Origin: Takakia lepidozioides
Lineage: Eukaryota; Plantae; Bryophyta
Length of the DNA stretch: 64,000 bases
Direction: 5' to 3'
Assembly (NCBI GenBank): GCA_030704615.1
Contig: CM060733.1
Location: 48,112,001-48,176,000 of the forward strand
The position numbers were made by a program, and so were the translations under genes. The notes beneath the pieces are model-generated. The model had not been told where the DNA came from, searched no databases, and saw only the letters and a program-made list of their open reading frames with translations. How positions within the stretch are numbered: the stretch's first letter is position 1; each line of letters starts with the position of its first letter. Below, in pieces: positions 5,112 to 49,370 of the stretch.

Positions 5112-7306
5112 CATGCAGGCTGATTCAGGAAGACACTGCTTCGGGACAGGGAAGAAGAGAAAGAAAGGCTGTAGAAGCTAGCCCAAGAGGGGCAGACTTA
5201 GCCATAAGCAAAAAGGTAGCGAGAAGCTACATCTAGATAGCGCAAAAAACCAAGAGCCAGCCTAAAAAGCCCAAAGGAGCTTAAGGTACATGTTTCTCGA
5301 GGCCCTGGGATCTATAGTCAGCTGATACTACCATAAGAGAGTTGGGCCCGAGTCTTGTCCGACTTAGAAGACCTTTTATGCCTCCAATTTACCTCCGAGT
5401 CTTCACTAGTACCTACTGGAGATCGCATAGTGCTGAGGGAGCTACCAGCCTTGTGGGAGAGCGTCGCACCAGGTAATTCTGGAATCAGATTCCCTTGTAC
5501 AAAGCCGTCCACCTCTGCCCCATGTTCCATCAAAATCTTCAAGCAATTGGGCTTTTCTCCTGTCGCCGCATCTGCAAAGCCAAGCCTTGCGAGCTTCAGA
5601 CATCAATTCTAAGTGAGACTTACAAAGGATTGTGCGCACACAAACAGGCTTACCAGAGAAAATGACAGCGCATCTGGCTTTCCAAATATTCCACAGGAGG
5701 TGGGCTCTAAGCGTGGCCCACACAGGGCAAGTGGTTCAGATTGAACCATCAGCAGAAAGAGGATTAAAGACAAATCAGAAGCAAGAAATCCTTCCCACAA
5801 GACGTAGAAAGATAAGGCCTTACCCCAAACCTGCCTGGCAACCTAACATTCCACAAAGCAGTGCTCTAAGGTTTCGGAAGCATTAAGATTGCAGATCCTG
5901 CAAGGGGGGGGAGTATCCGGAAGGTGGCTAAGAATAGGTAACACCCGATTGACAAGCTTCCAGAGAAAGCCAGAGATCTTGGCTGCCCTATCTTTGCGCC
6001 AAACATCCTTCCAAATAGGTTTCCACGTGGTGGGGTAGCCAGGCAAATGCAACCATTTTGTAGTCCACTTAGCATCTAGAGAGATGACTGGATTCAGCAA
6101 AGAGTAGCCCATCTTGACAGTGTAAGCAAAAAAAGGAGAGCGGCTATTATCAGCCCAAACCCATTCCCCCGGATCAAATTGCAGTAAGGAGAGGGGAGCT
6201 ATTAAAAACCATAGCAGCCTAGGGTTGGTGTGACCCCCATTGTCAGCAGAAGGGTTCACAACACCTGAAGCCATACAGAAAACACGGATGGCAAAAGGGG
6301 GGGCCTCCAACACACAATCCATTTGCGGGGAATGCAGGAAACCAGATGAGAAAACTTGAAACTTCCAGCCACGCAGGAATCATCCTCTCTTAACAAGGCA
6401 AAAAAGACAAAACGATTACCAGCATCCCCCACCCCCCCCAAGCCAGACAGAGAGAGCACGTCTATTAGCTGGAAAAGATGCAAGGGAGATCCACGAAACA
6501 TGAATGTCGCCAGTAACCACATCTCATCCAGCTCTTAACCTTCTGGTGGAGAGAGCAGCCCCTGCCTCCGTCGGAGGGAGAAGGCCTCCGTCCTCCCAAA
6601 TATGAAGGAAACTGGAAACCCCAGCAGCTTCCCAATGGGCCCATCTGGCCGAGCATGTAATCAACAGCAGTGAGTCTCAGATAGTATTACCAAAAAGAGG
6701 TTGTCTTAAGACCTCCTCCATAGAGGTAGGGGGTCTTTTGGGACAGCTTGGAGCGAATGGTGATCCATGCCCGCCAAATAGAGTTCCACGCTACAGAGCC
6801 GCCGGTGAAAGAATGATTGGAAGAACCACCTTGCACAATCCAACGGAGCGAAGGAGACCAACCTAAGGCGGAAGTAGGGCATGCCTGAAGAAGATGATGC
6901 CTGACAATCAGACTCCACGGGGCCGTAAGATGCTTAAAAACCCTAGGGACCCATTTAGCGAGAAGAGCAGAGATCTGGGATTGAGGGTCAATAATTCCCA
7001 AACCTTCGTTGCCTTTCTTTTGAGTAATCTGTTCCCAACTTACCAGCGCCTTTCTAGACTGATCCGGAGATGAGGCACCCCAAATGAAGTTCCTAACGAG
7101 GGCTTTGATCTTCTTTACTGTGATCGGGCCAGGATGCCAGACAGATGAATTAAACCATCCGGAAGCCAGCAGGACCTGATTGACCACCAAAGCTTTACCC
7201 GCAATAGAGAGAAATAAGGAGCACCAGTATGAAAGCTTCTTTCTAAGATTTTTAACAATCACCTCCGCCCTTTGCTCTTCGCACAACCCATGACCAATAA
7301 GATGGC

Positions 7307-8915
7307 GAGGGAAGCTAGCGTGTGAGCGCGCTCACGCTTAGCGCACTAAGCGTGAGCAGACTTCGTTAAGCGTGAGCAGATCTCTTAAGTGTGAGCAGAT
7401 CTCTTAAGTGTGAGCAGATTTCTTAAGCGTGATCACATAAGGGAAGTGGAGCCTATAGCCGTGGGAAAAGCAGGACCTATTGTCGTGGGGGCGATGTTGA
7501 GTGGAACGGAGGGTAACATACGATGCCTAGGACCTAAGACGTCGAGTTCCATGCATGAAAATTTGAGAGGAATGTGTGGCGAAATTCGTAAGGATTAATG
7601 GCTATGTTGAATGGATGAATGTAGGATGAATGCAGGATGAAAAAAGATAGATGAATGAACCATGGATGACAGCAACACGAGGTTAATTTCGGAGAACTTG
7701 AAATCAACCTTGTGCCAACACGAGGTTGATTTCCGAGTGGACACAGAACGCAAGGTTGATTTGCATCCTACTACTCTTTTTTTTGCGATTTTTTTGCGTT
7801 TATTTTGCATTTTGTTTTGTTTTTTTTTCAACACAAGGTTGATTTGAGAAATGAAAGCATCTTTTTTCCAAATAAAAAATAAAAAATAAAAAATAAAAAA
7901 TCGCAGGATGCAAATCAACTTTGCGTTGACGCAAGGTTGATTTGAGGAATGAAAGCATCCTTTTTCTCAAAAATATAAATAAAAATGAAGTCTCAGGATG
8001 GAAATCAACCTTGCGTTGATGCAACCTTGATTTGAGAAATGAAAGCATCTTTTTTGCATTGTTTTTTGCATTTTGTATTGGCAAATCAACCTTGATTTGA
8101 GAAATGAAAGCATCTTTTTATCCAAAAAAAGTTAAGAGAAAAAAAAAAAATTGAGTCGTAGGATGCAACGTTGACGCAACCTTGATTTGAAAAATGAAAG
8201 ATATTTTTTTCCAAAAAACAAATTGAAGTCGCAGGATGCAAATCAACCTTGCGTTGACGCAACCTTGATTTGAGAAATGAAAACATCTTTTTTGCACTGT
8301 TTTTTGCATTTTGTATGGGACACAATCAAGGTTGCGTTAACACAACCTTGATTATGCTATGGATTTCAATCACCTCTTTCGGGAAATAAATCTTCGTCTT
8401 GCTTAGTATTTCGTGTCTTCTAGTCTTTTGGGAAGTTCAGGGATCAACCTTGCATCAACACGACATTGATTACAAGGGGATTTAATGGGAATTAACAAGC
8501 ATTTGCTGCATCTGTGTTTTCTGAATGTATAGTTCAGGTACATCTACCATATCCTCATTCCGGGGAAGTATCTGAGCGATGACCGTCGATAATACATCTA
8601 GTCTTTAACCATCCACTCATCCATTGTTCATGCATTGCGAAGCGTATGTCTATCCATCAGCCATCTCGCATTCAACCATTCATGAATTATTCATCCATCA
8701 TTCATCCAACATTCATCCAACATTCATCCAGCAGTCATCCAAGTACGCATGATATGTACACTCATTCCCGCGGAAATATGTCTCTGGTGGCTTCCTCATC
8801 CGCGATTGTAGGCCCATGCACCCTATTACGTGAGCATCTTTCCGCTCACAGATTGACATCTTCCCGCTCACGCATCTTTCCGCTCACGGGAGCCGCTCAC
8901 GGACTAGCAATCCCC
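7307..8915. mobile_element. Non-autonomous Mutator-like (MULE) element inserted in the LINE RT
   Basis: 9-bp TSD TAAGATGGC at 7298-7306 and 8916-8924. G-starting imperfect TIRs (GAGGGAAGCTAGCGTGTGAGCG vs GGGGATTGCTAGTCCGTGAGCG on the opposite strand). Subterminal GTGAGC/GCTCAC repeats. No coding capacity. Confidence 0.8.
7680..8360. repeat. Internal tandem repeats of the MULE-like element with a palindromic core
   Basis: Repeated unit ggatgcaaatcaaccttgcgttgacgcaa(cc/gg)ttgatttgagaaatgaaagcatcttttt. The core CAACCTTGCGTTGACGCAAGGTTG is a near-perfect inverted repeat. Confidence 0.8.
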
Positions 8916-9746
8916 TAAGATGGCCAAGAAGGACATGGGATCGACCATCCTGAAGCCAATCAAGGCCTATGTTCTCCCCCCATGGAAGACAATGCGATGC
9001 AGAAACAGGGTCTCTAATCTTGGAGAGAAGCCCCTTGGATTTATTCCAATTAATTCTGAGGCCTGATGCATCACAGAAGGAGGAAATAGCATCTAGTGTA
9101 CGTTGAACGTTGGAGAAGCTGTTGTTGTCAACCAGAAGAGAAGTATCATCCGTATATAAGAAGGATTTAATGTTGTAATCAGATATGCAGGGATGCGGGA
9201 CTCTGAGACCTATGATGTCAGAGTTCTTATTGAGGAGATGGGTAAGACCATCCGCTGCAATTAGAAACAGAAAAGGAGATAGATGACATCCTTGACGAAC
9301 AGAGCGGAAAATTGGAAAAGCACTAGATGATGTGACCATTTACGATGACCTTGTTGGAGGCAGATTGAAGGAGGATCCGAATCCAGCTAAGGAAGTTTCC
9401 ATGAATACCACATTTTTGTATGGCACCCAGAAGATAGTCCCATTCAATGTTGTCGAAAGCTTTCTCGAAGTCAAGCATTAGAAGAGCTAAAGGCTGGTTC
9501 GAAAATGGGCAGTATTAAGGGCCTCACTGGCTAGAAGAATGCTATCGAGAATCATGCGATCTTTCATAAAGCCAGTTTGCTCAGGACTGATCATCTTGCA
9601 TAGCAACGGCTGAAGTCTGGAGGCCAAGGCTTTCACTATAATCTCATAGACAACATTTAGCAAAGTGATTGGCCTATAATTAGCCAAGGAGTCTCTATCC
9701 CCTTTTTTGAAGATCAAAGTGATTATTCCCTGGGATAATTGCGATG

Positions 9747-9935
9747 TGTCGTGCGCATACATATCGCTACACAACTACATCGCTGTCCAAAACCACACAA
9801 CACATGTGCACACCACACACTAGTATACCACTAGTCCACCACTAGTCCAGCCACTAATCCAACCACTAGGCTACAACTAGTCAGTCACTAGGCTGCCACT
9901 ATGCTGCCCACTATGGCAGTCATTAGTCCACACAA
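9747..9935. repeat. Split repeat A, copy 1 (189 bp; element 3' terminus)
   Basis: Near-identical to 10255-10432. It has one extra CCACTAGT-type unit, a 1-bp indel and two substitutions. Confidence 0.95.
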
Positions 9936-10252
9936 TGATAAAGAAGAAGAATACAAGCACGAGCTCACAAATCTGAAGCATAAACTCATGCATATATAAC
10001 CTCATCAGTCAAATACAAGTCAAGCCAAGTGCACCCCACGCCATGGGGAATCCACACTACGGCGCCATAGCTAGGCGCGGTGAGGCTCAACTCGAGAAAG
10101 ATGAGCCTCCCGCGCTTGCCGTGAAGATAACCACTCCAAGGCCTAAATCTGCCTTGACCCCTGGATTGACACTTGGGCCAATCCCAAATGTCAATATGTA
10201 AAAGCTAGCTATTTCCTAGCTAGTTTCACACTAGTGGTAAAATAACTTGACA
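9936..10252. repeat. Split repeat B, copy 1 (317 bp)
   Basis: Matches 20396-20712 with two substitutions seen (catcagtc/catcactc; ccaaggcc/ccagggcc). Confidence 0.95.
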
Positions 10253-10254
10253 GC

Positions 10255-10432
10255 TGTCGTGCGCATACATATCGCTACACAACTACATCGCTGTCCAAAA
10301 CCACACAACACATGTGCACACCACACACTAGTATACCACTAGTCCAGCCACTAGTCCAACCACTAGGCTACAACTAGTCAGTCACTAGGCTGCCACTATG
10401 CTGCCCACTATGGCAGTCACTAGTCCACACAA
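10255..10432. repeat. Split repeat A, copy 2 (178 bp)
   Basis: Direct repeat of 9747-9935, separated from B1 only by GC (10253-10254). Confidence 0.95.
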
Positions 10433-10443
10433 TCGCCCCCCTA
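10433..10443 (-). promoter_or_regulatory. Putative polypurine tract (PPT)
   Basis: Minus strand reads TAGGGGGGCGA immediately before repeat A2, the position expected for plus-strand priming. Confidence 0.6.
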
Positions 10444-10691
10444 GCTGGTGCTTAGGTCCCTCTAAGTCCAGGTAGCCACAAGATGTGATAGTGACCATAG
10501 CCTCACTAAGTCCTCCACCACTATCCCTACTACACTCAAACTCGATAGATCAAGAGGCCGGGTGCAAGAGTTGCCCCATCATTAGTCGCCGTCTTGCAAC
10601 CTGTGAACTTGAGCTTGAGATCTCATGTATTGACTCCTATGAGCTTGGCCTCCCATGTCTTGTTAGCTGCCTCCAGTCATGTCCACTGCCA

Positions 10692-10979
10692 CTATCCCAA
10701 GCAGTGTGGACACAACCAATCTCCGTCAGGAACCTTCTCAAGAGGTGGTGTCAAGCATCCCATATGCCAACCCCTTGAGCATCGATCACACACCAGCATG
10801 GTGGCTGCCCCTTTGGCAGACCCACAGAGCATGCATCTCAAACCTGCAGGTACCACTGCCAAGTTTGGGTCAACTCTGCCATCGACATTGGGAAGGTGAC
10901 ATGGCGCACAATTACGCACATGGTCCTTCCAAGTCATGCCATCCCGACCCTCCAAGATCAGGACCCCTGAGGGCAACAC
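10692..10979 (-). CDS. Integrase C-terminal PHD finger (frameshifted from the integrase ORF)
   Basis: C4HC3 pattern: CMLC...MLVCDRC..GWHMGC LTPPLEKVPDGDWLCPHC. Confidence 0.92.
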   Translation of the reverse strand: MLPSGVLILEGRDGMTWKDHVRNCAPCHLPNVDGRVDPNLAVVPAGLRCMLCGSAKGAATMLVCDRCSRGWHMGCLTPPLEKVPDGDWLCPHCLG

Positions 10980-10990
10980 CTCTCGAACCC

Positions 10991-12358
10991 TCAGAATAAC
11001 ACGCCCTGCAGTAACGTAGGAGCAGTCTGCTGCAAATAAACATAGTCACTAGGGCTAAACCTCCAAACCCCAGGACGATATCCTCCACCACGTATAGTGG
11101 CATACCTCAACGTATCACGGTGTTGTGCAATGGCAAGGTTCTCAAAAGCCATGGGCATGACTTTCTTGAACAACTCTGCACGCTGATCACATGCACGTAC
11201 CCACACGTCCGGGTCGTCAAGGTTAAGGACTTGAGCAGTGTCCCTACGAATGGCTGCAGGCAAATCCGGCTCTCGGCCAAAGAGAAGGAAATATGGTGAG
11301 AAGGAGGCAAGTGATGCTTGTTTGCTGAACCTGTAGCCCATGGCTAACCAAGGAACCTGAAGATCCCAATCTCCTAGGTGTCCCTTCTGCAAGCCATACT
11401 TGCGCAAACCCCTCTTCACCGTCTGAACAACTCTCTCTGCTAAGCCATCGGCCTCAGGATGATCCCGAGAAGTGGTGCGGTGGTCTATCAAGGCTTTATC
11501 ACACAAAGCCTGAAACTCCCCCAAGAACTCTCTCCCTTGGTCTGTGAGTACCTCAGCTGGAGCACCAAATCGGCTAAGCACACGATCCAAGAATGCATAC
11601 GCAGCCCCCTCACTAGCCTTGTCAGGCAACGGAACCAACTCAATCCACTTGGAGAAGTGCTCCACCATCACCAACACATATCTGTGGTGGCGCATAGTCA
11701 GTGGCAACGGTCCTGCGAAGTCAAGACTCCACCTGTAGCCCAATCCCATGATTGGTAAAGGATGCAACTGTGGTGTAGGGGCGTGGAATGAAGCACGCAC
11801 CCTGTCACACACCATGCACCTAGCCACGAACTGTTGCACCTCTGTATGCATACCACGCCACCAATACTGCCCCTGCAGTAAACTGTGAGTGCGTCGCACT
11901 CCAAAATGCCCCAACTCCTCATGGGCATGCCGCACTAACCGTGCACGCTGTGTGGGGTGAGGCACAATCCTCACCCGACCATCCTCCCACACTCGAAGTA
12001 GGTGTATCCCCTCCCACTTGAACCTCTTGGCTCGTTGCAGGATCCGATCCCTCTCCCTGGCAGTCACAATGGCTGCCGTGTCTCCCGTGCGGAGGTAGTC
12101 CAACACAGCCGAATCCTCATGTATATCTCTGGCACCACCTAGCTCATCACTAGCCTCAGGGTCCTCAGACACTCCGTCTACAGTCATCCCTGTTGTAGGT
12201 CCAATTTGACCTCCCGATGCCAAGATACACAAAAATGCAGATGCGTGCCATCCCGGCACCATCTCCTCGTCCGTCTCACCATGCCACCGAGCTCCAGTGT
12301 CATCCTGCTGGCTCATGCATGGATTGCGACTCAATCCATCCGCATCCCGATTGACCAA
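10991..12358 (-). CDS. Gypsy-type DDE integrase (pol segment)
   Basis: HHCC zinc domain (HEELGHFG...CMVC) and catalytic D,D35E (WSLDFAGP, LTDQGREF, LAERVVQTVK). Confidence 0.95.
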   Translation of the reverse strand: MVNRDADGLSRNPCMSQQDDTGARWHGETDEEMVPGWHASAFLCILASGGQIGPTTGMTVDGVSEDPEASDELGGARDIHEDSAVLDYLRTGDTAAIVTARERDRILQRAKRFKWEGIHLLRVWEDGRVRIVPHPTQRARLVRHAHEELGHFGVRRTHSLLQGQYWWRGMHTEVQQFVARCMVCDRVRASFHAPTPQLHPLPIMGLGYRWSLDFAGPLPLTMRHHRYVLVMVEHFSKWIELVPLPDKASEGAAYAFLDRVLSRFGAPAEVLTDQGREFLGEFQALCDKALIDHRTTSRDHPEADGLAERVVQTVKRGLRKYGLQKGHLGDWDLQVPWLAMGYRFSKQASLASFSPYFLLFGREPDLPAAIRRDTAQVLNLDDPDVWVRACDQRAELFKKVMPMAFENLAIAQHRDTLRYATIRGGGYRPGVWRFSPSDYVYLQQTAPTLLQGVLF

Positions 12359-13700
12359 ACCGGTCGATGCACAACCTGAAAGTCATACTCCTGGAGTATA
12401 AGTGCCCACCGTGCAAGCTTCCCCGTAAGCTTGTCTGACTCCATCAACCACTTGAGTGGCTGGTGATCCGTGACAAGGGTGAAAAGATTGCCGTATAGAT
12501 AGCACCTGAAGTGTGCCACGGCCCACACTGCAGCTAAGCACTCTCCCTCATATGAGCTGTACTTAGCCTCTGCAGCGTTGTTCGAGCGGCTAGCGTAAGC
12601 CACTACGAACTCTCTTCCCTCATCATCCACCTGTGTGAGCACCGCTCCAAGCCCCAGCATGCTCCAATCCGTATGCAGCTGAAAGGGACGCCCCCTGATA
12701 GGTCGTCTCAAGATAGGCGCCGAGGTCAACCTCGCCTTGAGCTCTTGAAAAGCTCGTTCCTGCTCATCTTCCCACTGCCACTCCTGGTCCACCTTGGTCA
12801 GCTTGGTTAGAGCCTTTGCAATGGTACTAAATCCCTTGACAAACCGTCTATAATAGTTTGCCAACCCCATGAAAGCTCGAACTCGGCTCACATCCGTGGG
12901 GCGTGGAATTTGTGCAATGGCCTCTACCTTAGTCTGCTGTACCCCAATCCTCCAGGATATATCATGTGACCCAGATACTCAATCTGGTTGTGGAAAAACT
13001 TGCACTTCCCCGGATGCAACTTCAATCCGTGCGCTCTCAAGCGCTCCAATACCACCTGAAGGTGTCTCTCATGCTCCTCCATCGTAACACTAAAGATGAT
13101 GATGTCATCTATGTAGCACCGAGCAAAGTCCACCCCTGCTAGAATCCTATCCATGACTCTCTGAAACTCTGCAGGAGCATTCTTAAGCCCAAATGGTAAG
13201 AACCGCCACTGATATAGGCAATCCTTGCCGTGCTCATTGATCCCCCAGAATGCCGTCTTTGCTTGTCCGCCTCCTTGATTGGCAACTGGTGATATCCGGA
13301 TCGTAAATCCAAAGTGCTAAAGGCCTTAGCATGCCCGATGGCATCAAAGATCTCCTCTGGTGTTGGCATGGCATACTTATCGGACTTGGTCTGACGATTT
13401 ACAGGCCGGTAATCACCGCACATACGTCTCTCCGTCCAATTGCCATAGACATCCTTCTTGGCTGGCATCACTGTGGCTGAAGCATACTCTCCACCAGAGA
13501 GCTCCACCAAACCTGCCTCCCAGAGATCTTGAGTCCTCATCTGAATCAAAGACCTCTCCATGTCACTGTATCTATAGGGTCTCCGAAAGATTGGCGTGTC
13601 AGTGGCCAACTCAATACGGATCTCTTGACCCTTCAGTGCTCCCAAGTCCTTCAAACTGAAGGCAAAGCAATTCCTGTAAGCCCTCAGGAACCGCCGTATA
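12331..13700 (-). CDS. Reverse transcriptase and RNase H (pol segments, several frameshifts)
   Basis: RT: RMCGDYRPVN, STLDLRSGYHQL, MPF-type FLPFGLKNAP, CYIDDIII, KCKFF..YLGH. RNase H: LHTDWSMLGLGAVL, YSSYEGECLA, TDHQPL. Confidence 0.95.
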
Positions 13701-14109
13701 CGTCGTCTCTCTCCTCCGGTGACAATGGGTCCAATGTCAGGCTCCCAATTGTCCTCCGTAACTGCAACCTTAAGTCCAGTGGGCTTAGAGGTAGAGGACG
13801 CGTCCAGTGGTTGCTATGTTGCAACCTCTTGAGCAGTACTCCCTGCCTGCTCAGTCAATGACAAGGCCTCATCCTGCCCCATCATCTCATCCTTGAGGAC
13901 CTCCTCAACCCGAGAAGAATCCCCAACCTCATCCATCACACCGCCTTGGCTGCCAACTCCCTCTGAACCTCGAGCACCTCCCACGTGTGCCATGGATGCA
14001 TGCACCCCGTGGTCCTCACATGCTCGCCCCCACTCACTGCCTGTACCGTCTCGGTAGGCAGAGAGACCATTGAGGGAAGTGTACTCCGCACTCTGCGTTG
14101 CTCAGCCAG

Positions 14110-15060
14110 AGCCAAGCTGATAATCCAGGTCAAGCAATTGAGATCCATTGCTTGCCCCAACACTTGACGACGTGATGCCTCAGAAAGAGACGACACCGCC
14201 GTGGTACCAGTGGTAAAACCCATTGCCCGCTCACGCTCGTCAGCATTAGGCTCCACTAACTGCTGCAACTGAGCATCCCACAGGAGGCCAGGTCCACTAT
14301 CCCGGAAAGCATGCGATCCTGGGAAGCTGAGCAGTGTAGGTAATGCTGCTCGTGGTTGACCCACCTTGTTGACCACTGCCAAAGGCAAACGGTCATCGTG
14401 TCTCACACGCTGAGACTGCCTCCCTGTGTCCAGAATGCTATCCACTGTGAGATGTGCTGGCCGCTGCACCCCATCAAATGCACGCTTGAGCAGTGCGGGT
14501 GGCATCAAGTTAGTCCACCATAGCCGTGGACGATGAGCCCGTGACCCCACTGTAGCTGCATCTAGCAACACTGCTGACCCAAGCCACGACCGGACTTGAT
14601 GCACACTGGCCATCACCCTGGCCCGAGAATCGCCCATCAGTGGCACATTCTCCAAGATGTATGCTGGAGATACAGCTTGATGAAGCTGCAAGTGGCGCAA
14701 AACCCGCACCATCTCCCAAAACAGACCCGACCTCGAGTCTCGCAATCCATTGCCATGCCCGGCTGATGAATGCCCTTGGCAGGGCCAACCTGCCACTACC
14801 AGATCAATGGAGCCAACCCGCTCCAAATCCTGCGCCCCCAGCAACGAAATGTCTGCTGGCAAGGCCTGCTGATATCCACGAATTGCAGACACCGACAACA
14901 ACTCAGGGTACCGCTGCACCAACTGAGCAACATGGCGAAGTGAAACGCGTCGTGCAGTCTCATCCCTCTCCACATACAGGTAACGCCGAACTCGTACACC
15001 TGCCTGTAACACAGCAGCCAATCCGGTGCTGATCCCGCCAAACAAGTCCAGAAGACAAAT
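14110..15060 (-). CDS. DNMT3-like C5 cytosine DNA methyltransferase domain inside the pol polyprotein (within ORF 13936-15231)
   Basis: Canonical motifs in order, uninterrupted: I LDLFGGISTG; II YVERD; III DI; IV DLVVAGWPCQ (catalytic PC); GLRDSRSGLFWE; VI YILENV; VIII DAATVGSRAHRPRLWWTNL; IX ERERAMGF; X RRQVLGQAM. These parallel DNMT3A motifs LSLFDGIATG, GGSPCN, LFENV, AAHRARYFWGNL, EMERVFGF and RQRLLGRSW. Confidence 0.95.
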
Positions 15061-15199
15061 GCCTTCATCCGGATACTGCCACACAATAGGTGTGGTGTCC
15101 AATGGAGACAACTGAGGTGGTCCTGGTGCAATCCCCGCACTCTCCTCCTCTCCTGACGGTACAAAAGCCTCCACCCAGGCTTGTTGCACCCGTCGATCA

Positions 15200-17982
15200 G
15201 CATCCGCTGCAAATCCTTGCTCGTGCCCCACAATGGAGTCTGAGCAACCATGGTAGGCAACTCCGCCATACCATACATGTCATCCTGCTCTCCCGGAGGT
15301 GGTACATCCTCTGAATGAGCATTGCCCTCAAGCAACTCTCTAGGCCAACTCACTGCCGCTGTGAATGCTGCTAGTGTCGGCATCTTGCCTCGCTGGGCAA
15401 CCGCAACTCCTCCTATGAACGTCACAGGGAGCTGCACACGCCGGCCCTCCCCTGACTGCCATGCAGGCCTATAGGAAGCTGACTCCTCCCAAAAATCCAG
15501 GGTGAAGCCCATGGGGTACAACACTGCCCCACCAACCAGGACATCGTATGAGACTGCGTCTGTCACAATGGCCTTGGCTCGCATCACTGAGCCATCTGTA
15601 GGGTGATCCGGCCGTAGTCTGATAGCCAACTCACGCCGTGTCATGCCCCGAGCCTGCTCCGATCCTCCCAGAGACGTCTGTATCTGGAAAGGACAAGGCT
15701 CCATATCCGCCTCCGTGAGGCCCAAGCCTGCAATAGCAGCTCTGCCCAGCATCAGTGGCTGAGCTCCCGAGTCCAACAAGACCCGCAGTGGCCGGTACCT
15801 CTTGCCTGCCGGTCCACTCAAACAGAAAATGCCATCCTGGTTGTCTAACATGACAACTCCAGGTGTCACCATGGCGCGCTCAATGGCTGGCCTAGCTGGC
15901 AGCTCCATCAACCTGGCAGCTGCAGCTTGCCATGGCGCCGCCGTGGCAGTCTTGACCCTCAAATCCGAGGATCCCTCCGGCACTACACCTCCCACTATCT
16001 CCGCAGAAGATGAAGTAACCTCCCCACTCTCACAGAGTGTAGCTGCCAGCCTGAACACCTCAGCTGGTCTTACCCCCGGCGTCGCAATCATGGTAGCCGA
16101 GAACAATGGAGCCTGGCACACAGATGTGGCCGCTCCTAGCAGCACACTAGCTGCCGTAGCCTTGGCAACACTAGGTAGTGGTGCTACCCGTGTAGCTCTC
16201 CCCAATGGCATAGTAACCTCCGCCTCGGTAACAGTCGAGCGAGAACTAGGTGCCATGGATGGCGTCGACACTGTCTCCGCCAATGTGAATGACTGAGGAA
16301 GCCTAGCCTGACGGCTTGCCTCCCCACGCTGTGGATCCAACTCCACCTCTGCACCTCGTGGCTCAGGAACTCGTGCTGCTCCTCGAGTCACGGCTGCAGC
16401 AGACTCCACCTGCACTAGTGGTAGTGCTGCTCCACACATGAATCCCATGCCTCCCATATCTCCTCCCTCAGGAGCAGGAGGTGGACCATCCGGCCTTAGA
16501 GCCGGTACCACCTGAGCTGTAGCCATGGCAGCGAGCCTCTGCTCTAGCTGCTGAAGCCGGTTGGCCATGCCTTGGTCAACACCCTGACCTCCGCGTCCTT
16601 GGCCACGTTGAGCTTGCCCTTGGCCTCGTGGCTGGCCACCTCGTCCTCTCTGGGCTGCTCCACCTCGCCCCCGGCCACCATTGTTCCCTTGGAACTGGCC
16701 TGGGCGCAACTCAGGATGCAAACCATAACAGGCCTCTTCATGCCCGTGCTTGCCACAATGCCCACACTGCAACTGTGCAGGCTGTGCATGTGCCGACCCT
16801 TTGCCTCCCTCTGGGCAATCCTTCTTGACATGGGGTCCTCCACATGTCCAGCACACACCACATCCGCCCGTTGTTGGCCAGCAAATGAAGGGAGAGACCC
16901 CTGCATCTGAGGTCCTCTCTGCCCTTCCCTGAGCTTCACCTGAGCCCCCTTGTTGCCTTGAGCACGTTGAGGTAGTGGTTGGCTAGGATCACCACTACCC
17001 CGTGGTGTCTCCTTAGCAAATCCACCATGACCACTCGTTCCTCCACCATGTTGAGCTCTATCCGCTCTGCCAGCAAAAACACATTTGCTAAGGTGGGTTG
17101 GGCCGCTTGTAGAGAGTTGCATCCCGCACCCTTCTCCTCAGCTCCTTGTCCAATATCCCATACCAGAATTGGACTGCCTGAGCTTCCGTAACCCCTTGGG
17201 TTACATTTATCAGCGCCTCATGCGAGTGAAAGCCTCCCTCCAAGCTCTCGGTCGGCTTCCGTTGGAACTCTTGCAAGCTCCGCAACTTCTCTGTCCTCAC
17301 CCCCTTGGTAGTTCCCTCTCAACTCTTCGAAGAACTCCACAAACAGGGTTGAAGGCAGGCACGGTGCTAGTGTTGGTGCGGTAGTGGCTTGGGTGGACTT
17401 CGTAGCTACTGTACCACCAGTCCCACTAGTCCCCTGCTACTTGCTGAAGCTGCCGGTGCAGCGGCAGGTGCAGCCACTGCCCTCGTGGCTCTAGTGCCCC
17501 TAGTGATGGAGACATAGTCGGGTGACCAGTACATCCTCCACTCCTCGATCTCAACCTCATGCCCCCGCCTGAACTCATGGTAATCATCCATAGGCGGCCC
17601 CTCAAGGTGCTGAAACAGCCCCTTCCATGCCATGAAAGGTGTAAATAGTTGTGGATTGCGCATTTGCTGCAAATCACACCAACTATCAACTCTTGGATAA
17701 AATCATCCAACTCGATGGTGCCCACCGCCCAGAGTACCTTCGTGGCCTTTTGGTAGCTCCATACATCTCCTCCATTGTGTCCCACAACAATGGCAAAGAA
17801 ACAACTTGCACTGCCGGTATGAGTCCTCCTGATTCACAATCCGAATCAGAACCTTCCGTGGAAGACACAGGAGGTGAAGGTGGCCTAAACCGCACACCTC
17901 GTCTCGTGTACCCACTAGTATCGCTAGTGCTCGAACCGGCACTGTCCCCAGCAACTAGTGGCACCTCCGTGTTGACACTCAA
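15200..17982 (-). CDS. Gag with two zinc knuckles and aspartic protease (frameshifted)
   Basis: CWTCGGPHVKKDC and CGHCGKHGH knuckles, RGG-rich linker, protease VLLDSGAQ...DVLVG. Upstream gag-like pieces (LQEFQRKPTES..., QAVQFWYGILD). Confidence 0.85.
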
Positions 17983-18699
17983 CCGGTCATGAACATGTCC
18001 CTAACCCCTCTCCACAAGGTAACCGGGTAGAGAACCTGTTACGGTTTATGGTTTGGAATACTAAGTTCCTAACATAGCCTACATCTGTACCTGCATCCAC
18101 CGCAAGCACTCCTATGGTTGGCTGGTCATCACCTCCAACCTCACCACAGGAGAAACAATGATGGTCTGGCTGGTCATCACCCCAGCCTCACCATCGACAG
18201 CATGCTCTAGGACTGGCCGGTGATCAAATCCGGACCAATCACCTATAAAAACAAGCGCCCACACAAAACTAGCATGGCGCAAAGTCAAGCATGCAGGTAT
18301 GGAGGGGATCCAAACACAAGAAATCAGAACGATAACTCCCCCACACCAAAAACAACTCCACGGTGTTGCTCCTGCAAGGACACCCCAGCCCAAACCCGGA
18401 CTGACTCTTGCCTCCACCTACGGAAAGGTCTTGGCCTAATGAGAGGGTGGAAACTACGAGGAAGAGAAGCTAAAGCAATGCCTAACCCCAGCATGCCCTC
18501 ATCCCAACACTCTTCCTCTCCTCTCTTCCCTCACTTGCATGACCATGGGAATATCATGAAGATACTCCTCAAACCGCCCTCTACGAGCTTCAAAATTCGG
18601 CCTTCCAGACCACATGCCAGTCCTTAGGCAGTCCACCAGTGCCTCCACGAGTCAGCACAGGCCGTCCACAGGTCAACACGGGCCACCACAGACCAACAC

Positions 18700-18965
18700 A
18701 GGCCCACACAGCTCACTGGTCACAGCCATCACAGTCCCACAGGCCATCAGGCACAACCCGTCACAGCCCCAAAGGCCATAGGCACAACCTGTCACAGCCC
18801 CGCACAGCCCGTCACATCCCCAAAGGCCACGGCACAGCTTGTCACAGCCCGTCACAGCCCAAAGGCCACGGGCACGGCCTGTCACAGCCCCTCACAGCCC
18901 GTCATAGCCCCACAGGCCTCAGGCACGGCCTGTCACAGCCCCTCACAGCCCATCACAGCCCCATC
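18700..18965. repeat. CACAGCCC-based tandem repeat in the retroelement 5' leader
   Basis: Many copies of (gt)cacagccc interspersed with aaaggccac.gcac. Confidence 0.85.
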
Positions 18966-20379
18966 CATGGCCGCTCTGGCAGTTTAGCCATTTCTCCAAG
19001 GGGTTTAGCCACGCCAAGCTAGGGTTTGTGTCTCTTGGACTCTAGGCTTCTTTCCACTGAGCTATGGCGGTTGTGAGGAAATCAGCAAGGTATTCTTGCT
19101 CTTTCGGCTCCCACACACCACCATAGTAGCCCTAAGCCATGAGGTGGTTGCCACAAACCAACCCTTCTTTCTCACTTAGCCTCCCCAAACACGCCACTAA
19201 ACTCAATGGCAAACAACCAAGCCCTGCTGGTTCCCAGCCCTTGTGAGCACTCATTCAAGCCCTCTCCTTGGCCATAACATCTGTCTTAGAGCCTATTCCA
19301 GCCCCCTACACCTGCTGCTTCAAGAGTTGCGCTCCCTTCAAGCTTGAAGTTGAAACCCCAACTCACATAGGCCCTACAAGTGCTTTTCTTTCACTCCAAG
19401 TGGAAACCAGCCCTAGACCTTCCATTCTAGCTCTCTAAAGCTTGAAAACAATAGCCTCAATGGGCTGAAGGCATGCTCCACACATGCCCCACTCTCACCA
19501 TAAGAGAATCAGCTCCTTTGCTTCATTTCTTGCACCCACAAACCTGAAAATACAAGCTTCAGCAGGCTGAAAGCATGCTCCACATGCCCTACAGGGAAAC
19601 CAGCCCCTTCCTTCCTTTCTTGCACTCCCACACCTGAAAGTGCAAGCCTTCACCAGGCTGATAGCATGCTCCACACATGCAACCTCTTCACACAAGAGAT
19701 ATCGGCCCCCTATCTTGGCTCCTTGGTTCCTTGATGCTCTCTAAGACAAGACTAAGCACTCCACAGCCTTTGCCAAGCTCCTGAAACCCTAAGGCTTACA
19801 TTTCCAGCCACAAGACACTTCTCTTGTGGTGCAAGAACTCTTCTTCCAAGCTCTGAAACCCTAGGTGCACATTCCATGGCCTTGCCGCACCTCTTAGCTC
19901 ATGTTCCAGCCCTGCTCTCGCCATGACAAGAGCCCTCTCAATGCTGAAGCTCGAGATTGAAACCCAATCTCACCATACTCCACAAAGTGCACTGATTTGC
20001 CCCAAGCCAAATCAGCCCTTTCGCTTGGTCTTGCAATCCTTCACACAATGAAAGCTCGCATTCCCAAGTCCAGTTCTCAGCTTTGCCACCAAAGCCACTA
20101 TAACCTGCTCTTGACTGGTCCTCTTCCCAATCGTGCTTGCTCATGCATGTACACAATCTGAAACCATCAAGGTGCTCTGGAATTACCTGCAGTATGGTGC
20201 TTTCATCTCTGAAGCTGAAGATCGAACGCCAAGGTTTACCACCTCGTAACCCACATCGCCTCCGCTTCTAACAACCAAGAGCTCCATGGTGCTCCTTGCA
20301 TAACAACTTGGTTTCCCTCATTCTCAAGCAAAAACTACAAGTGCTACAACTAACTCGTATCTAGCACTCATAGATACGA

Positions 20380-20395
20380 GCTGATCTTTCTCGAG
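20380..20395 (-). promoter_or_regulatory. Candidate self-priming primer-binding site
   Basis: Directly downstream of repeat B on the element strand. CTCGAGAAAGATCAGC is 15/16 complementary to 20551-20566 inside B. No TGG-starting tRNA PBS is present. Confidence 0.55.
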
Positions 20396-20712
20396 TGATA
20401 AAGAAGAAGAATACAAGCACGAGCTCACAAATCTGAAGCATAAACTCATGCATATATAACCTCATCACTCAAATACAAGTCAAGCCAAGTGCACCCCACG
20501 CCATGGGGAATCCACACTACGGCGCCATAGCTAGGCGCGGTGAGGCTCAACTCGAGAAAGATGAGCCTCCCGCGCTTGCCGTGAAGATAACCACTCCAGG
20601 GCCTAAATCTGCCTTGACCCCTGGATTGACACTTGGGCCAATCCCAAATGTCAATATGTAAAAGCTAGCTATTTCCTAGCTAGTTTCACACTAGTGGTAA
20701 AATAACTTGACA
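20396..20712. repeat. Split repeat B, copy 2 (317 bp; element 5' terminus)
   Basis: Direct repeat of 9936-10252, followed by TSD GATG. Confidence 0.95.
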
Positions 20713-21430
20713 GATGGCATAATGCCCTTGATGAGGATGTCGTTAGTTAAGTTAACAAAATCCTCACCACAAACAGGCCAAATTGCTTTGAAAAGCTCAA
20801 CAGGCAGCCCATCTAAACCAGGGGACTTTAAAAAAGCAAGAGATGAGAGAGCTTCCCCAAGCTCTATTTCATAAAATGGGGCAGAGAGCTTTTCCAGTCA
20901 GCAGGCAGAATGACTGAGGGGAAAACAGACAGTCCACTTCCTATCTGGATAAGATCATATCCTCAGAGGAGGTTCTCCTGTTGAACAAAGATGAGAAGTG
21001 GGAAGCAGCTAAGGAAGACAACTTCTTAGGACGAGAAATATGAAGAACTGACTCATTCTTCAGAGAGACAATAGTGGTTGCTGCCTGACGTTGCCTAGCC
21101 TTAAGGAAGAAATATGTAGACATTTTTTCTCCCTTAAGAGAGCAGCTGATACCCGCTTTACATCTCAAATTATCATCTTTTATCTTGAGCAGCTCAGCTA
21201 AGTTTCTTTTGGCCAAGAAATAAGAATCCCAAGTAGCAGGGGAGGCCCAATCCTTCTCAATGACTTGCTGACAGTGAGACAAACACTTAAAGAAATCTAT
21301 GAAGCTCTTTTACATCCGCAGTATGTACTGCTCGGCTGTAATGATGGTTCCCACGCCAGACCCATTGAGCTCATTCCCTGCACAAATGCATTGTAAGTTC
21401 ATCGACACACTACCTCCATGTGTTTTTACA

Positions 21431-35285: not shown

Positions 35286-35369
35286 AGGGTCCTATTGTCG
35301 TGGAAGCAGTTATAGCGCTTAAAAAAAGAGGTATAGAAAGAATGGAATGGTCAATGTGAAACTTACTGA

Positions 35370-36720
35370 GGTTTTCTTATTGAAGAAGAGGTGAAAAAAA
35401 AAGGTTGGGTGAGTCATCATGAATCTTACTTAGGGATTCTTGCATGAACAAGAGGCAAGAAAAGTTTGGATGCTCATTGTCAAGCTAGCTGACGTTTCCA
35501 GTATTTCATCCATGGTGGATGGATGATGGATGGATGAAATATTTAAGGAGAGGTTAAAAATAATAAGGATGGGCAAGAACAGGCCCCAAAATTGACCCCT
35601 CATTGTGAAACAGGCAATGGTTTTTGTTAATATAGATGAGGTGAAAATTAAACAGATGGTCATCTTCAAGCTTATTTAGGCTTTGTTTGTGAAGATGTGT
35701 AACAAAATGAGCGGTTTATTGTGGAACTTGTTCAAGTTTGTGTTATTGAAGATGAGGTGAAAAAAAAACACATGGTCATTGTGATTGCTTATTTAGGGTG
35801 TCTTTGTGAAGAAGAGGTAAAAAAAAACATTGAGCTATCCTTGTGAAACTTGTTTAGGATTCTGTTATTGAAGAAGAGGTGAAAAAAAATCAGATGGTCA
35901 TCATGAATGTTTATATAGGGTTTGTTTGTGAAGAAGAGGTGAAAAAAACAGTTAAGCTCTATCATTGCCAAACTTGTTCAGGTTTCTGTTATTGAAGAAG
36001 AGGTGAAAACAGAAATCAGATGGTCATTATGAATGTTTTTAGGGTTTGTTTGTGAAGAAGAGGTGAAAAAATTGAGCTCTCATTCTCAAACTTGTTAAGG
36101 TTTCTGTTATTGAAGAAGAGGTGAAAAAAATATTAGATGGTCATCATGAATGCTTATTTACGGTTTGTTTGTGAAGAAGAGGTGAAAAAAAAAGTTGAGC
36201 TCTATCATTGTCAAACTTCTTCAGGTTTCTGTTATTGAAGAAGAGGTGAAAAAAAAACTTGAGCTCTACCATTGTCAAACTTCTTCAGGTTTCTGTTATT
36301 GAAAAAGAGGTGAAAAAAAACCAGATGGTCATCATGAATGCTTATTTAGGGTTTGTTTGTGAAGAAGAGGTGAAAAAAATTGAGCTCTATCATTGTCAAT
36401 CTTGTTCAGGTTTCTGTTGATGAAAAAGAGGTGAATAAAAAATCAGATGTCATCATGAATAAATTAGGGTTTGTTTGTGAAGAAGAGGTGAAAAAAAACT
36501 TGAGCTCTATCATTGTCAAACTTCTTCAAGTTTCTGTTATTGAAGAAGAGGTGAAAAAAAAATCATATGGTCATCATGAATGCTTATTTAGGGTTTGTTT
36601 GTATAGAGGACGTGGAAAACAAATGAGCTATCATTGTGAAACTTGTTCAGATGCCTGTTATTCAAGAAGAAGTGGAAAAAAAAACAGATGGTCATCATGA
36701 AGCTCATTTACGCAATGCTT
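35370..36720. repeat. Minisatellite of about 55-60-bp units anchored on GAAGAAGAGGTGAAAAAA, with two alternating subunit types
   Basis: Alternating 'cagatggtcatcatgaatgcttatttagggtttgtttgt' and 'ttgagctctatcattgtcaaacttgttcaggtttctgttatt' spacers. Confidence 0.9.
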
Positions 36721-36949
36721 CTGTAGAGGCCGTGAAAAAATAAAATGAGCTTTCATACTGACACTTGTCCATGTTTGGCAGGCCCTCGAACAAAAAATAA
36801 ATTTATTTTTATTTTTATTTTTTATTTTATTTTGGGCCCGAAGCAATATTGGGGGTGGGGGCAGAAGTGGTGTGCGTTGACGCACTCAATTTTAAAGGCT
36901 CGTTAACCAAACCCGATGAAAAAATAAACTACCTTTCATGACGAGACAT

Positions 36950-37689: not shown

Positions 37690-38607
37690 ATCTGTCACGA
37701 TAAGATGTCGTCGGGAGCTGGCTAGCTACTTGAAAGCCTCGGGGATGCGGATTATCAAGACTTGGAACTGTGTCAACAGCCTATATCTGATGAAGGGGGA
37801 TTGCCCAGGGCTGAAGGTGGGTTTCAAATACTTTGTTTTTATGTCTTCTCTGTTGAAGTTCCACTGTAAACAATGTTATGAAGTCATGTTGTTCGCACTG
37901 CCTGAATTGAGTGCTTCAGCGCACTCAGTTATGGCGGTGCATGAGGAATGACTCTGAACCAGTTCCATCTAGAATGGGTCTGTACTCCCACCCAAATGTG
38001 CTATAAAACATTCCTCACTAATTATTGTCATCTTCATCGCAGACCCGTCTATTTGAGGCCGTGTGTCTCGTGAGGGTACATCCACTGTTGACTCCCACCA
38101 CAGTGGTGGAGTTCGAGCTTCATGGGGGAGGATGTTTCATAAACGAGAGGTTCGATCCTGTCGTCGACGACATGCACTACAACTATGTTGACTCCAACGT
38201 ATGTTTGCGAAAGCCAAATGGAACTCCTTGGAGAAGGGCCCGTGAAAAAAGCCCGGCTTTTATCCAAACGATCGTTGAGAGTTGTTCTCAGCCAGGGGCC
38301 CGCATCATAGATCTCACTCTTGACACAGGTTTCTCTTCTTGCCTTTGTCATCGATTTCTTTTCTTCTGCACCTTCTTTACTCAATATTCTAAAACTCTAA
38401 TCCTTCAATCTGTCTCTTGCAGGCGCTTCTTACCATGCTTGCAAGGCAGGTGGCAGACACTTGCTTGGTATGGAAGGAGATGCAGATATTTTCACTGGCC
38501 TCCTTGCCGAGTTGCAAGGGGGCGCGTCTACCTCCAATGTCAAGGATGTCACTGCGCAAATTGATATCCTCGACGGAGACGACAAGGACCTGGACAATGA
38601 CTTTCAT
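37690..38607 (+). pseudogene. Spliced fragment of a beta-class N4-cytosine/N6-adenine DNA methyltransferase
   Basis: Removing intron 38329-38422 (GT...CAG) gives REKSPAFIQTIVESCSQPGARIIDLTLDTG|ASYHACKAGGRHLLGMEGD. This follows the N6_N4_Mtase C-terminus pattern (xKPxxLxxxLIxxxSxPGDxVLDPFxGSGTTxxAAxxLGRxxIGxExD). No DPPY/SPPY motif is seen. Confidence 0.65.
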
Positions 38608-39629
38608 GTGAGTAAGTTCATTTTCTGTCTATTTGATCCCTGTATATATGCTCTGTCGCGTCCCCTTCTGTTGTCTGATTGCAAGAATGTGAACGCACTC
38701 CCGTGGCCCCTGTCTTCCATATACTTGAGGGACTTGTGCTGGAGCCCACCTCCTAATTATGTCCTTCCCGATTACGCGGAAGGCATTGCTCGTGTGCAAG
38801 CAGCTGTGCTTTCTCCCCTACCCTTGCGTTGGAGTTCCAGGAAGACGCTTAGGCACCTCCGCGCAAAGGTCTTCATAGATAATAGTGCAGCAGTTTCAGG
38901 TTGTAGCAATACTTCTAGCAGTTCATCAGATTTAGGTGGTAGCAGTAGCAGTGTTGACACCACCTATGGATGTACTTGAGGGCATTCATTTATGGAACAT
39001 GAGGGGACACACTCTCCGTTTTCCGTTACACCACCATTTCTCTTCCCACCATCCGTTGTAATGAGCACGGACTACAATGAAATTCACATCCCTGAATTGA
39101 AACATTCTCTCCCCCGCGTCCTGCGAATTTGAAAGTGTTTTCCTTCTAAACATTGCTCTCCAATTCAACCGTGTGCATTCAATAAAAGTTTTTCAACAGA
39201 GATGAATATATGCATAGTCCAGTAGACAGTCATTCGACATATACCATCACACCAATATTTGGTTGGATGGATGGAGGATGAATGTTTTTGGATGGATAAA
39301 CCCCGATTGGATGTACACTGTGGATGAATGTTGCATGCATGGATGGTCCCATAGATGTTGTCAGTGCGCAGTATCATGCACAGGGGCGGGATGGCGAGGT
39401 TCACTGTCGGGGTTGAGGTGGGTCCCTAAGGCTGACAAGGGTTAGGGTTTTTGTTTGGGGTTGCAGGGTTAATATGGATGAAGAGTGTTTCTGCGGTAAT
39501 GGATCCTCTTCCATGGAAATAGAAGCCGCATCTTTCCCAAATTCATGCCACGTGTCATGGGCTCACGCCAGGCTCCTGGGCTCACAGGCTCTTGGGCTCA
39601 CGTGGCTAGGCTCACACTCTAGCATCCCC

Positions 39630-48139: not shown

Positions 48140-49370
48140 ATTGACCCGTTATCTTATCCAACTCGTGATCCTCAGCCTTAATGGGCTCGCTCCTCCTGGC
48201 TTTTCTGGTACTGGAAATCTCATCTTGTGGAGCTCCCTTCAATCCTGGTGAATGGAAATGGCCTGGTGGTATTTCATTTCTTAACTTATACGTAGCCAAG
48301 CTAGGATACTCCCTAACTTTGGGCCTTCCTATTCCTATCTCCAAGTGGGCTGCTAAATGGGTTCACATCATGCCCTTCACGGTTAATTGGGAAGCAATGT
48401 GGAGGCATATCTGGGCTCCTCATAGAGCTGCCAAAATCTCTGCTTTTCTTTGGAGGATTGGAAACAAGATTATGTCAGTTGGTTCATCACTGGACCCTCC
48501 ATCTGCATGTAACGTTTGCAATTTAGGACTGACTGAATCGGCCCTGGAGCATTGTCTTTTTAGTTGCAGGTTTGCTGCTTGCATCTGGACTAAGGTCAGG
48601 GCTTCTATCTCATCTGGAAACCTGTGGAGGCATCCAGTGTTTCCATCCAATATCTTCTCAACCTTCACCAGGGGCATCTTTGGTCTAATTGTGCTATTTG
48701 GGCTTGCCTTCGTTTTCTCTCTCTCTGGCAAATTTGGAAGTCACGCTGTGCAAAGTTCTATTTAGGCTGCATAGCCCCTTCCACTTCTACGAACTTGCAG
48801 ATTATTTATTTCAATCTTCTAATTGAGAGGCATAAGGCTTGGGAGGTTTTGATTGTAGCTTTACTCAAATGTTCTCAAGCTAATCGCTCCAAGCTCATCA
48901 AAGCTCTTGACTCCACGTGGGGATGGCGTGGGATTATCTGCTCCGGCTATTTCGACGAGGGCACAATCTGGTACTCCGACATTCCCAGGGCATGGTGCTT
49001 CTCCTAGTTAGTGACCATCTCCATCCGACCGGGACGAGGAAATCAACTGGCGCCATCGAAAGCTCAGAAATTCCAAGTTTCAAGCTCAGCTTGATTTCGA
49101 GTCCGTTGGAGCTGAGTGCTAATTCTGCTTTTCTCTTGGTTGCTTGATATGCTCATTTCTTCCCTTGTCAGTTCTCCTGCTAGCGTGCTTCATGTTTCAT
49201 CTGATGGTTTAGATCTAGCTTCCTGTTTAGCTGGATATTTTGAACTGGCGGCCTTGAAGTGGCCTCGCTTTGTATTCCTTATGGCCTACGAGGTTATTTT
49301 TTCCTCGATTTAATTTGAGTAAAATGGGCTCCGTCCCTTTCCTTTTAAAGAAATAAAAAAGAATAAAAAT
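48140..49370 (+). mobile_element. 5'-truncated LINE (zf-RVT region plus 3' tail), same family as the large LINE
   Basis: FNPGEWKW, RAAKISAFLWR, CNVCNLG..ESALEHCLFSC and LWQIWKSRC parallel 5442-6322. The 3' end ggctccgtccct...A-rich matches the tail at about 4694-4740. Confidence 0.85.

Follow-up and report, generated by a model that had tools for sequence, protein, structure and literature searches.

A Ty3/Gypsy retrotransposon with a DNMT3-type methyltransferase, a probably leaky stop and split terminal repeats in the moss Takakia lepidozioides

A stretch of 64,000 nucleotides of the Takakia lepidozioides genome (assembly GCA_030704615.1, contig CM060733.1, positions 48,112,001 to 48,176,000; hereafter the window, in whose coordinates all positions are given) contains a Ty3/Gypsy retrotransposon that carries a cytosine methyltransferase of the DNMT3 type. 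The element occupies positions 9747-20712 of the reverse strand, on which all of its stranded features lie. By sequence it is of the same lineage as KnitGypsy-Dnmt3 of Klebsormidium nitens, described in 2018 (PMC5890265), and the kind is already known from that alga. We read it, with somewhat better than even confidence, as a decayed copy of an element whose first open reading frame (ORF1) would encode Gag, protease and methyltransferase, and whose stop is likely read through to reverse transcriptase (RT), RNase H, integrase and a PHD finger. The methyltransferase would be present in the particle at Gag-like amounts, and would likely methylate the element's own new complementary DNA (cDNA) before integration. 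The observations behind this reading are the domain order, the intact motifs, the conserved stop and its context, the repeats, the target duplication, the selection on the methyltransferase and the distribution of its relatives.

The methyltransferase lies in a frame that is open for 447 codons (13936-15279) with no internal stop, between the protease (LLDSG at 15779) and the RT (YIDD at 13115). The match to the profile PF00145 scores 49.5 bits against a cut-off of 22. Motifs I to X are intact, with FGGISTG (motif I) at 15042, WPCQG (IV) at 14787, LENV (VI) at 14655, AHRPRLWW (VIII) at 14538, ERERAMGF (IX) at 14238 and LGQAMD (X) at 14160; their order is unpermuted, unlike that of DRM. An initial annotation, made from the sequence, had placed a complete DNMT3-type domain here, which is borne out, although the catalytic domain, at about 14086-15108, is narrower than the 13936..15231 it gave. 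Against solved structures, a single-sequence search ranked DNMT3A first (E 4e-11), followed by DNMT3B (6e-8), DRM (9e-6 to 2e-4) and HhaI (7e-4), and a 21-sequence profile gave the same order (5e-24, 3e-22, 1e-10 and 2e-7, respectively), with no DNMT1, MET1 or CMT among its 53 matches. An AlphaFold model (pLDDT 80.2, pTM 0.80) has DNMT3A as its best fold match (E 3e-20, TM 0.82 by target length). By sequence, profile and predicted fold the domain is therefore a C5 methyltransferase of the DNMT3 type, as first proposed, rather than one of the MET1/CMT or DRM types. The catalytic cysteine, ENV, R-x-R and the S-adenosylmethionine-binding motif are retained throughout the alignment. Host DNMT3 of non-flowering plants has a C-terminal DUF3444 (PMC6453930); the domain scan of the window frame found PF00145 only and no DUF3444, and a protein atlas search returned nothing further.

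The remaining domains are arranged as in other Gypsy elements. The gag region (16701-17800) has zinc knuckles and, in the window copy, several frame changes and stops. The aspartic protease (15417-15911) is identified by its motif and by Pfam protease matches in relatives. Beyond the methyltransferase lie the RT (12945-13678; frame broken near 13257-13259 and 12941), the RT thumb and RNase H (12361-12939; PF17917 and PF17919; break near 12359), a DDE integrase with an H2C2 zinc finger (11027-12139; Pfam and motifs), and a C-terminal PHD finger (10695-10997) that is in the integrase frame in 29 of 30 relatives. Its nearest counterparts are the fingers of CHD4, PHF12, KDM5 (PHD1) and PHF21A, which are readers of unmethylated H3K4. 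The order protease-RT-RNase H-integrase, the Ty3-like RT and the DDE integrase are all Ty3/Gypsy traits. Among 83 related loci gathered from metagenome and genome collections, L036 has a pol frame whose best solved relative is Ty3 (E 4e-98).

In the window copy, the frame changes at about 15203-15205, between protease and methyltransferase, and at 13940-13942, between methyltransferase and RT. The initial annotation noted both changes correctly and took them to be the way in which the methyltransferase is linked to its neighbours; the second part does not stand. Protease and methyltransferase share one frame at 42 of 50 testable related loci, and methyltransferase and RT do so at 38 of 51. Other copies from the same organism, aligned from all four sequencing runs, hold the frame at about 15203-15205, 13940-13942 and 13257-13259, and the remaining listed breaks of the window copy are likewise in frame in other copies. 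Programmed frameshifting at either methyltransferase junction was rejected, since relatives and same-organism copies keep the frame. The slips are lesions of the window copy, due to mutation or assembly error, and not a translation signal. At least 12 length differences separate the window element from other copies, and at 8 of the 16 sites examined the change involves a homopolymer of at least three bases. The family is clearly abundant: in one run, 124,230 contig records align to the element, with a summed depth (not a copy number) near one million, compared to 121 and 82 on the flank contigs.

An in-frame TAG (13816-13814) followed by CAA CCA, which conforms to CAR-YYA, forms a predicted readthrough signal between ORF1 and the RT (13808-13816). 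The initial annotation had the methyltransferase in one continuous Pol and overlooked this stop, as well as the PHD finger and the split repeats, palindrome, target duplication, polypurine tract and self-primer set out below. In the protease-methyltransferase interval, stops are scattered over 25 positions, as expected from decay. In the methyltransferase-RT interval, a stop stands 38-48 codons ahead of the RT in 44 of 51 loci (not all independent, some being the same locus assembled twice), so that the methyltransferase ends ORF1. CAR-YY follows it in 43 of the 51 (8 exact CAR-YYA and 35 CAA-CCY), while this context occurs just 11 times among 745 stops that decay has left within domains. The hexamer varies within the pattern: CAACCA in the window and L011, CAACTA in L068, CAATCA in L050 and L093, CAGTTA in L036, and also CAACCY. 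The open frames of L036, of 1369 and 1047 codons, are split by this stop alone, and many annotated relatives terminate just past the methyltransferase. For the named Marchantia, Calypogeia and Klebsormidium proteins, repeats and stop context are read from the protein ends and from metagenome loci. After UAG, CAR-YYA gave 11-32% readthrough in plant reporters (PMC2754532). The conserved stop is likely to be leaky, with Gag, protease and methyltransferase in ORF1 and Pol made via readthrough. Judging from the stop, Gag, protease and methyltransferase would be made one to one, and RT and integrase as a minority.

Relatives with a species name belong to Marchantia (up to 71% identity), Calypogeia, Riccia, Sphagnum, Closterium and Chromochloris, and a look-up of 20 proteins added Scenedesmus, Cymbomonas and Klebsormidium nitens; 573 clusters (at 50% identity) match at E 1e-30 or better. 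No vascular-plant names occur among these matches, in a setting where transposon proteins are often masked. The suggestion that the lineage persists in land plants is thus upheld by the liverwort and Sphagnum relatives. Its proposed kinship with the Klebsormidium elements is likewise supported: K. nitens protein P0436 (GAQ93235.1) has the order zinc knuckle-protease-methyltransferase and is 38% identical (E 9e-61). Viral contigs yielded only distant partial methyltransferases (12 loci, 29-47%).

Two architectures are found. The window, Closterium and P0436 have protease-methyltransferase-RT, while Scenedesmus has RT-RNase H-methyltransferase-integrase-PHD. Among 139 new representatives, the methyltransferase lies after RNase H and/or before integrase in 86, follows the window order in 11, stands alone in 41 and is unclear in one. 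All 44 retroelement methyltransferases, P0436 included, form one group (96/94), and that of the window groups with liverwort and Sphagnum copies (100/99). The tree proposed earlier thus places the window with K. nitens; on the host side, it has the retroelement group sister to a single insect DNMT3 against four viral methyltransferases (100/98, on a long branch), with no plant host DNMT3 or DRM included. Integrase and methyltransferase trees of 27 elements both separate the two architectures (100/99, and 99 in a quick tree), and one old capture followed by one move within the element would fit this concordance. As predicted, dN/dS (the ratio of nonsynonymous to synonymous substitution rates) is below one, at 0.07-0.23 in 7 of 20 listed pairs, the remaining pairs having saturated synonymous rates. 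Among the listed differences between same-organism copies, 11 of 16 are synonymous. By these sequence measures the methyltransferase is under purifying selection.

Some further observations concern these relatives. Whole Gypsy-DNMT3 elements occur in records titled as bacterial genomes (L093:1-9285, L094:1-10362 and L095:1-13480); three of the four prokaryote-genome matches are such whole elements, probably algal contigs in metagenome bins, and P0091 likewise carries a bacterial methyltransferase name. By a crude pattern, motif IV in P0306-P0444 reads W-E-C in 54 of 139 and W-P-C in 27 of 139, with 28 unmatched, and the EC form is seen in members that group with the chlorophyte-type architecture. 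Moss and liverwort copies (P0001-P0013, P0067 and P0083) are 60-77% identical in the methyltransferase, which is high for a retrotransposon across that split and may reflect either strong constraint or horizontal transfer.

The domain order agrees with the gag-pol Gypsy element first described, but the ends are not those of a standard element with two long terminal repeats (LTRs). Instead of two full LTRs flanking the internal region, the layout is A1-internal-B1-GC-A2-B2, with ends TGTC...GACA. Repeats A1 (20396-20712) and A2 (9936-10252) are 317 nucleotides long and differ at 2 of 317 sites, and the insertion is therefore young; B1 (10255-10432) and B2 (9747-9935) are 93% identical, counting an 11-nucleotide length difference. 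The element is inserted in the RT of a long interspersed element (LINE; 5843-9746 and 20713-21309), whose frame is open on either flank. Because the separately translated flanks continue one LINE RT frame, the boundaries are fixed together with a 4-base-pair target duplication, GATG, at 20713-20716 (upstream copy) and 9743-9746 (downstream copy). The TG..CA ends, the duplication (expected at 4-6 base pairs) and the polypurine tract are Ty3/Gypsy traits. Exact 4-base-pair duplications are present at 5 of 7 distinct full-length cases; L038 has 3 of 4 positions matching, and L067/L074 have 3 base pairs.

The same A-internal-B-A-B layout is found in L055, L076 and the distant L067/L074. At the B1-A2 junction, the palindrome GACA-GC-TGTC (10249-10258) corresponds to both element ends joined via a 2-nucleotide spacer, and the junction CACGACA-GC-TGTCA, or a slightly decayed form, occurs in 10 loci, one of them of the chlorophyte-type architecture. 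The polypurine tract GCTAGGGGGGCGA (10433-10445) lies directly before B1, and a G-rich tract is found there in the window and 15 loci. Directly after A1 is a primer-binding site (20384-20396) that is not of the transfer RNA (tRNA) type; its 13 nucleotides are complementary to positions 151-163 of A, the predicted self-primer (20550-20562), and 0 of 300 shuffles were as good. Scans found no tRNA gene or Rfam match, and no tRNA-type primer site in the element. The self-complement measures 17 nucleotides in L055, 16 in L036 and 13 in L093, and its sequence differs in each and from the window, which amounts to covariation. Of 16 further peat-moss-type loci, 12 have a self-complement of at least 10 nucleotides that begins at the A end. 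Between the primer site and gag is a long 5' non-coding region (17800-20383) with short tandem repeats at 18720-18963 and 19402-19709. L025, L032 and L038 are A-internal-B forms that have target duplications and no A2-B2; lacking a 3' repeat, they are predicted to be dead ends.

These features suggest the following cycle. The RNA would start inside A and act as its own primer, with its 5' end base-paired to the site that follows A1. Reverse transcription from this site and from the polypurine tract would give B-GC-A-internal-B-GC-A; the replicative LTR would be B-GC-A, because the primer site and the polypurine tract delimit it, and the palindrome within it marks the ends used for integration. 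The cDNA ends would join into a two-LTR circle, and integrase would cut the internal GACA-GC-TGTC to yield A-internal-B-GC-A-B with a 4-base-pair duplication. The A-internal-B-A-B layout is the exact permutation expected from cutting such a circle at its upstream palindrome, and HIV-1 integrase is able to cleave a palindromic circle junction (PMC1905944). The protease would free the methyltransferase to methylate the cDNA, which would then arrive bearing a mark like that of host heterochromatin. The PHD finger belongs to a type that recognises unmethylated H3K4 and would steer integration to silent chromatin. Gag-level supply may suit a slow enzyme acting on 11 kb inside a particle. The initial annotation had already proposed that the protease would release the enzyme, which could then methylate the cDNA, the circle or the target locus; these are plausible predictions. 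Self-methylation of the cDNA appears to be the best reading of the methyltransferase, because related DIRS enzymes, the retrotransposon DNMT3s of Symbiodinium, methylate CG de novo in yeast (PMC5890265), because the catalytic residues are conserved, and because supply would be at Gag level.

A number of observations weigh against this reading. The activity, the RNA and the circle are predictions from DNA sequence. The Klebsormidium enzyme gave no methylation in yeast, a result that its authors regard as inconclusive (PMC5890265). The observed/expected CpG ratio is 0.48 in the element and 0.47 in the remainder of the window, with no extra depletion. The stop is absent from 7 of 51 loci (L038, L043, L053, L066, L067, L074 and L075), and P0363, P0362 and P0032 read from methyltransferase into RT without one; 35 of the 43 contexts, CAA-CC(C/T), are one base short of the full signal, and most of these belong to a single peat-moss-type family of closely similar copies. 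Of 46 near-complete methyltransferase copies only 10 are stop-free, and dN/dS is based on those. In L067/L074 the self-complement is weak, and 4 of the 16 peat-moss-type loci lack it at the A end. With regard to the ends, 12 loci stop at B1 without A2-B2 and would have been either cut at both palindromes or recombined later. B precedes 0 of 18 5' ends, and the mirror product of the circle model, A-B-A-internal-B, was not found among them; a bias or later recombination must therefore be assumed under that model.

The same anatomy could also serve an enzyme that acts on host DNA, either at the target site via the integration complex or in trans on other transposons or genes, with the PHD finger taking the place of an ADD domain, which plant DNMT3 does not have. 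This is a possibility to be taken seriously, though an improbable one. In the chlorophyte-type elements, the methyltransferase lies between RNase H and integrase-PHD, beside the chromatin-binding end (the 86 of 139 representatives counted above), and production at Gag level would leave spare enzyme. In the window architecture, by contrast, it is tied to Gag and protease, which points to the particle, and the Klebsormidium methylome is described as ordinary in the available text of PMC5890265.

The ends might instead be rebuilt as in DIRS/Ngaro elements, with a transcript that enters B2, an inherited A-B junction and an internal B-A junction that templates both ends, the methyltransferase acting on cDNA as proposed above. 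The missing mirror product among the 18 5' ends speaks for this, as do the precise A-B junctions of the window, L055 and L076, and the repeat structure of the Klebsormidium element is termed DIRS-like (PMC5890265). Still, an ordinary LTR cycle with the LTR B-GC-A requires just what is seen, a primer site right after A1 and a polypurine tract right before B1; a tyrosine recombinase is missing and a target duplication is present, and we regard this route as unlikely. Slightly more doubtful still is that the methyltransferase is kept for binding and not for catalysis, to coat or protect cDNA or RNA or to act as a decoy for host DNMT3. The inactivity of the Klebsormidium domain in yeast (PMC5890265), the lack of extra CpG loss in the element and the finding that 54 of 139 representatives have EC instead of PC (a crude motif count) would agree with it, but the catalytic cysteine, present in both PC and EC forms, is conserved along with ENV, R-x-R and the cofactor-binding motif. 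The many frame breaks of the window copy might suggest that a host DNMT3 was captured only once, that one insertion is nested in another, that the domain is a neutral passenger or that the assembly is chimeric. This is highly improbable, and the relatives together with dN/dS already refute it: hundreds of relatives have the same order, the methyltransferase is covered evenly with the rest of the element in independent sequencing runs, DUF3444 is absent and dN/dS is far below one.

The element can be compared with several known systems. KnitGypsy-Dnmt3 shares with it the Gypsy domains and an unpermuted Dnmt3, DIRS-like repeats and purifying selection (PMC5890265), and P0436, not necessarily the element drawn in that paper, has the window's domain order. 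There, the element is treated as an acquisition of the K. nitens lineage and its DNMT lies in one ORF with RT, whereas the window kind is present in many copies in land plants, extends across green algae, and has methyltransferase and RT in the same frame with a stop between them at most loci. Readthrough, self-priming, the junction palindrome, the target duplication and the PHD finger are not described for KnitGypsy-Dnmt3 in the available text of PMC5890265. SymbioDIRS-Dnmt3 and the DIRS/Ngaro elements share the A-coding-B-A-B layout and a Dnmt3 in the polyprotein; for SymbioDIRS-Dnmt3 de novo CG methylation was shown (PMC5890265), while the window element is known from sequence. DIRS/Ngaro elements integrate by tyrosine recombinase. 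In the window element the integrase is of the DDE type, the ends are TG..CA and the duplication is of 4 base pairs; the domain scan found no tyrosine recombinase, which sets it apart from DIRS/Ngaro.

Tf1 is a self-priming element. The Tf1/Sushi group and the plant Tcn1 chromoviruses share with the window element priming without tRNA and a chromatin reader at the integrase end (PMC6317226), but they have two ordinary LTRs, a chromodomain rather than a PHD finger and no methyltransferase. The chromodomain expected of a chromovirus (Chlamyvir/Tcn1) is absent from the window element and the relatives scanned, which have the PHD finger. Tobacco mosaic virus (TMV), SIRE1, murine leukaemia virus (MuLV) and Tca2 have an in-frame UAG readthrough in common with it, and the CAR-YYA context is as in TMV (PMC2754532, PMC2194720); in the window, the stop comes after protease and methyltransferase, both of which would be made with Gag. 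EpiLTR and DAM-LTR are LTR elements of green algae with DNA methyltransferases and a chromatin reader, but their enzymes, an adenine methyltransferase and a DNMT4-like one, are stated to be distinct from Gypsy-DNMT3 (bioRxiv 10.64898/2026.05.21.726589). Troyka is likewise an unusual LTR lineage, with CG..CG ends, a 3-bp duplication and ordinary LTRs, and is restricted to animals (PMC12440569); the window element lacks those ends and that duplication, and a place within Troyka was rejected.

Relative to the K. nitens report, the land-plant and chlorophyte range, the readthrough stop, the self-primer, the palindromic junction and the target duplication appear to be new, no earlier report having been found. 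A literature search that left most subscription papers outside its reach found no account of Gypsy-DNMT3 in land plants or chlorophytes, or of its readthrough or end structure. Two later papers, one of them bioRxiv 10.64898/2026.05.21.726589, name only 'streptophytes' as holders in their available text; the available part of the PMC12344493 supplement includes Klebsormidium and not Marchantia, Sphagnum, Closterium or Chromochloris, and the accessible portions of PMC10952607 and bioRxiv 2024.09.22.614159 held nothing relevant.

Elsewhere in the window, two short forward-strand exons at 38200-38510, with a GT-AG intron at about 38329-38423, lie beside transposase-like remnants (39619-41240). Their products (EKSP...IVESCSQPGARIIDL, then ACKAGGRHLLGME) resemble, by motif, the end of an N4/N6 DNA methyltransferase; Pfam and PDB gave no support for this. 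An intact 849-codon PLS-type DYW PPR gene (54124-56673, reverse strand) has an inverted, 83% identical and apparently broken paralogue (62243-63998, forward strand). Between the two is an intronless mitochondrial carrier gene (60431-61375), possibly a retrocopy, with a long branch; it is 77% identical to Ceratodon, at most 72% to lycophytes and angiosperms and 66-67% to liverworts, and groups with mosses at only 88/81. The DYW PPR gene marks a land-plant host, and the carrier gene makes a moss likely. There are also LINE pieces at 48169-49007, a Copia integrase at 51278-52063 with tRNA-Met-type primer sites at 50129-50288, and degenerate tandem arrays at 35362-36744 and 7747-8319, with units of about 60 and 90 nucleotides.

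It is tempting to speculate that these elements form a Ty3/Gypsy clade that spans the green plants and predates the chlorophyte-streptophyte split. They would prime themselves, pass through a two-LTR circle and rely on integrase to cut at a palindrome within the LTR, and such a cycle has not been described for retroelements with a DDE integrase. The streptophyte branch of the clade would use a leaky stop to load each particle with DNMT3 at Gag level, and new copies would carry methylation before they integrate into chromatin that lacks H3K4 methylation and is recognised by the PHD finger. This wider picture is tentative.

The role of retrotransposon-borne DNMTs has been a standing question since 2018, when the sole Gypsy case was an alga with an enzyme silent in yeast. 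The same lineage in a moss and, by named proteins, in Marchantia polymorpha makes the question testable, with methylation mutants and long-read methylation calls. The readthrough stop yields a prediction of stoichiometry, and the repeat anatomy a concrete, testable route for integration via a circle. There are consequences for annotation as well. Finders that need two full LTRs, by the criteria available in PMC6317226, would miss or mis-bound such elements, and a number of copies have been entered as hypothetical genes of the host, so that bryophyte genomes can seem to have more DNMTs than they do.

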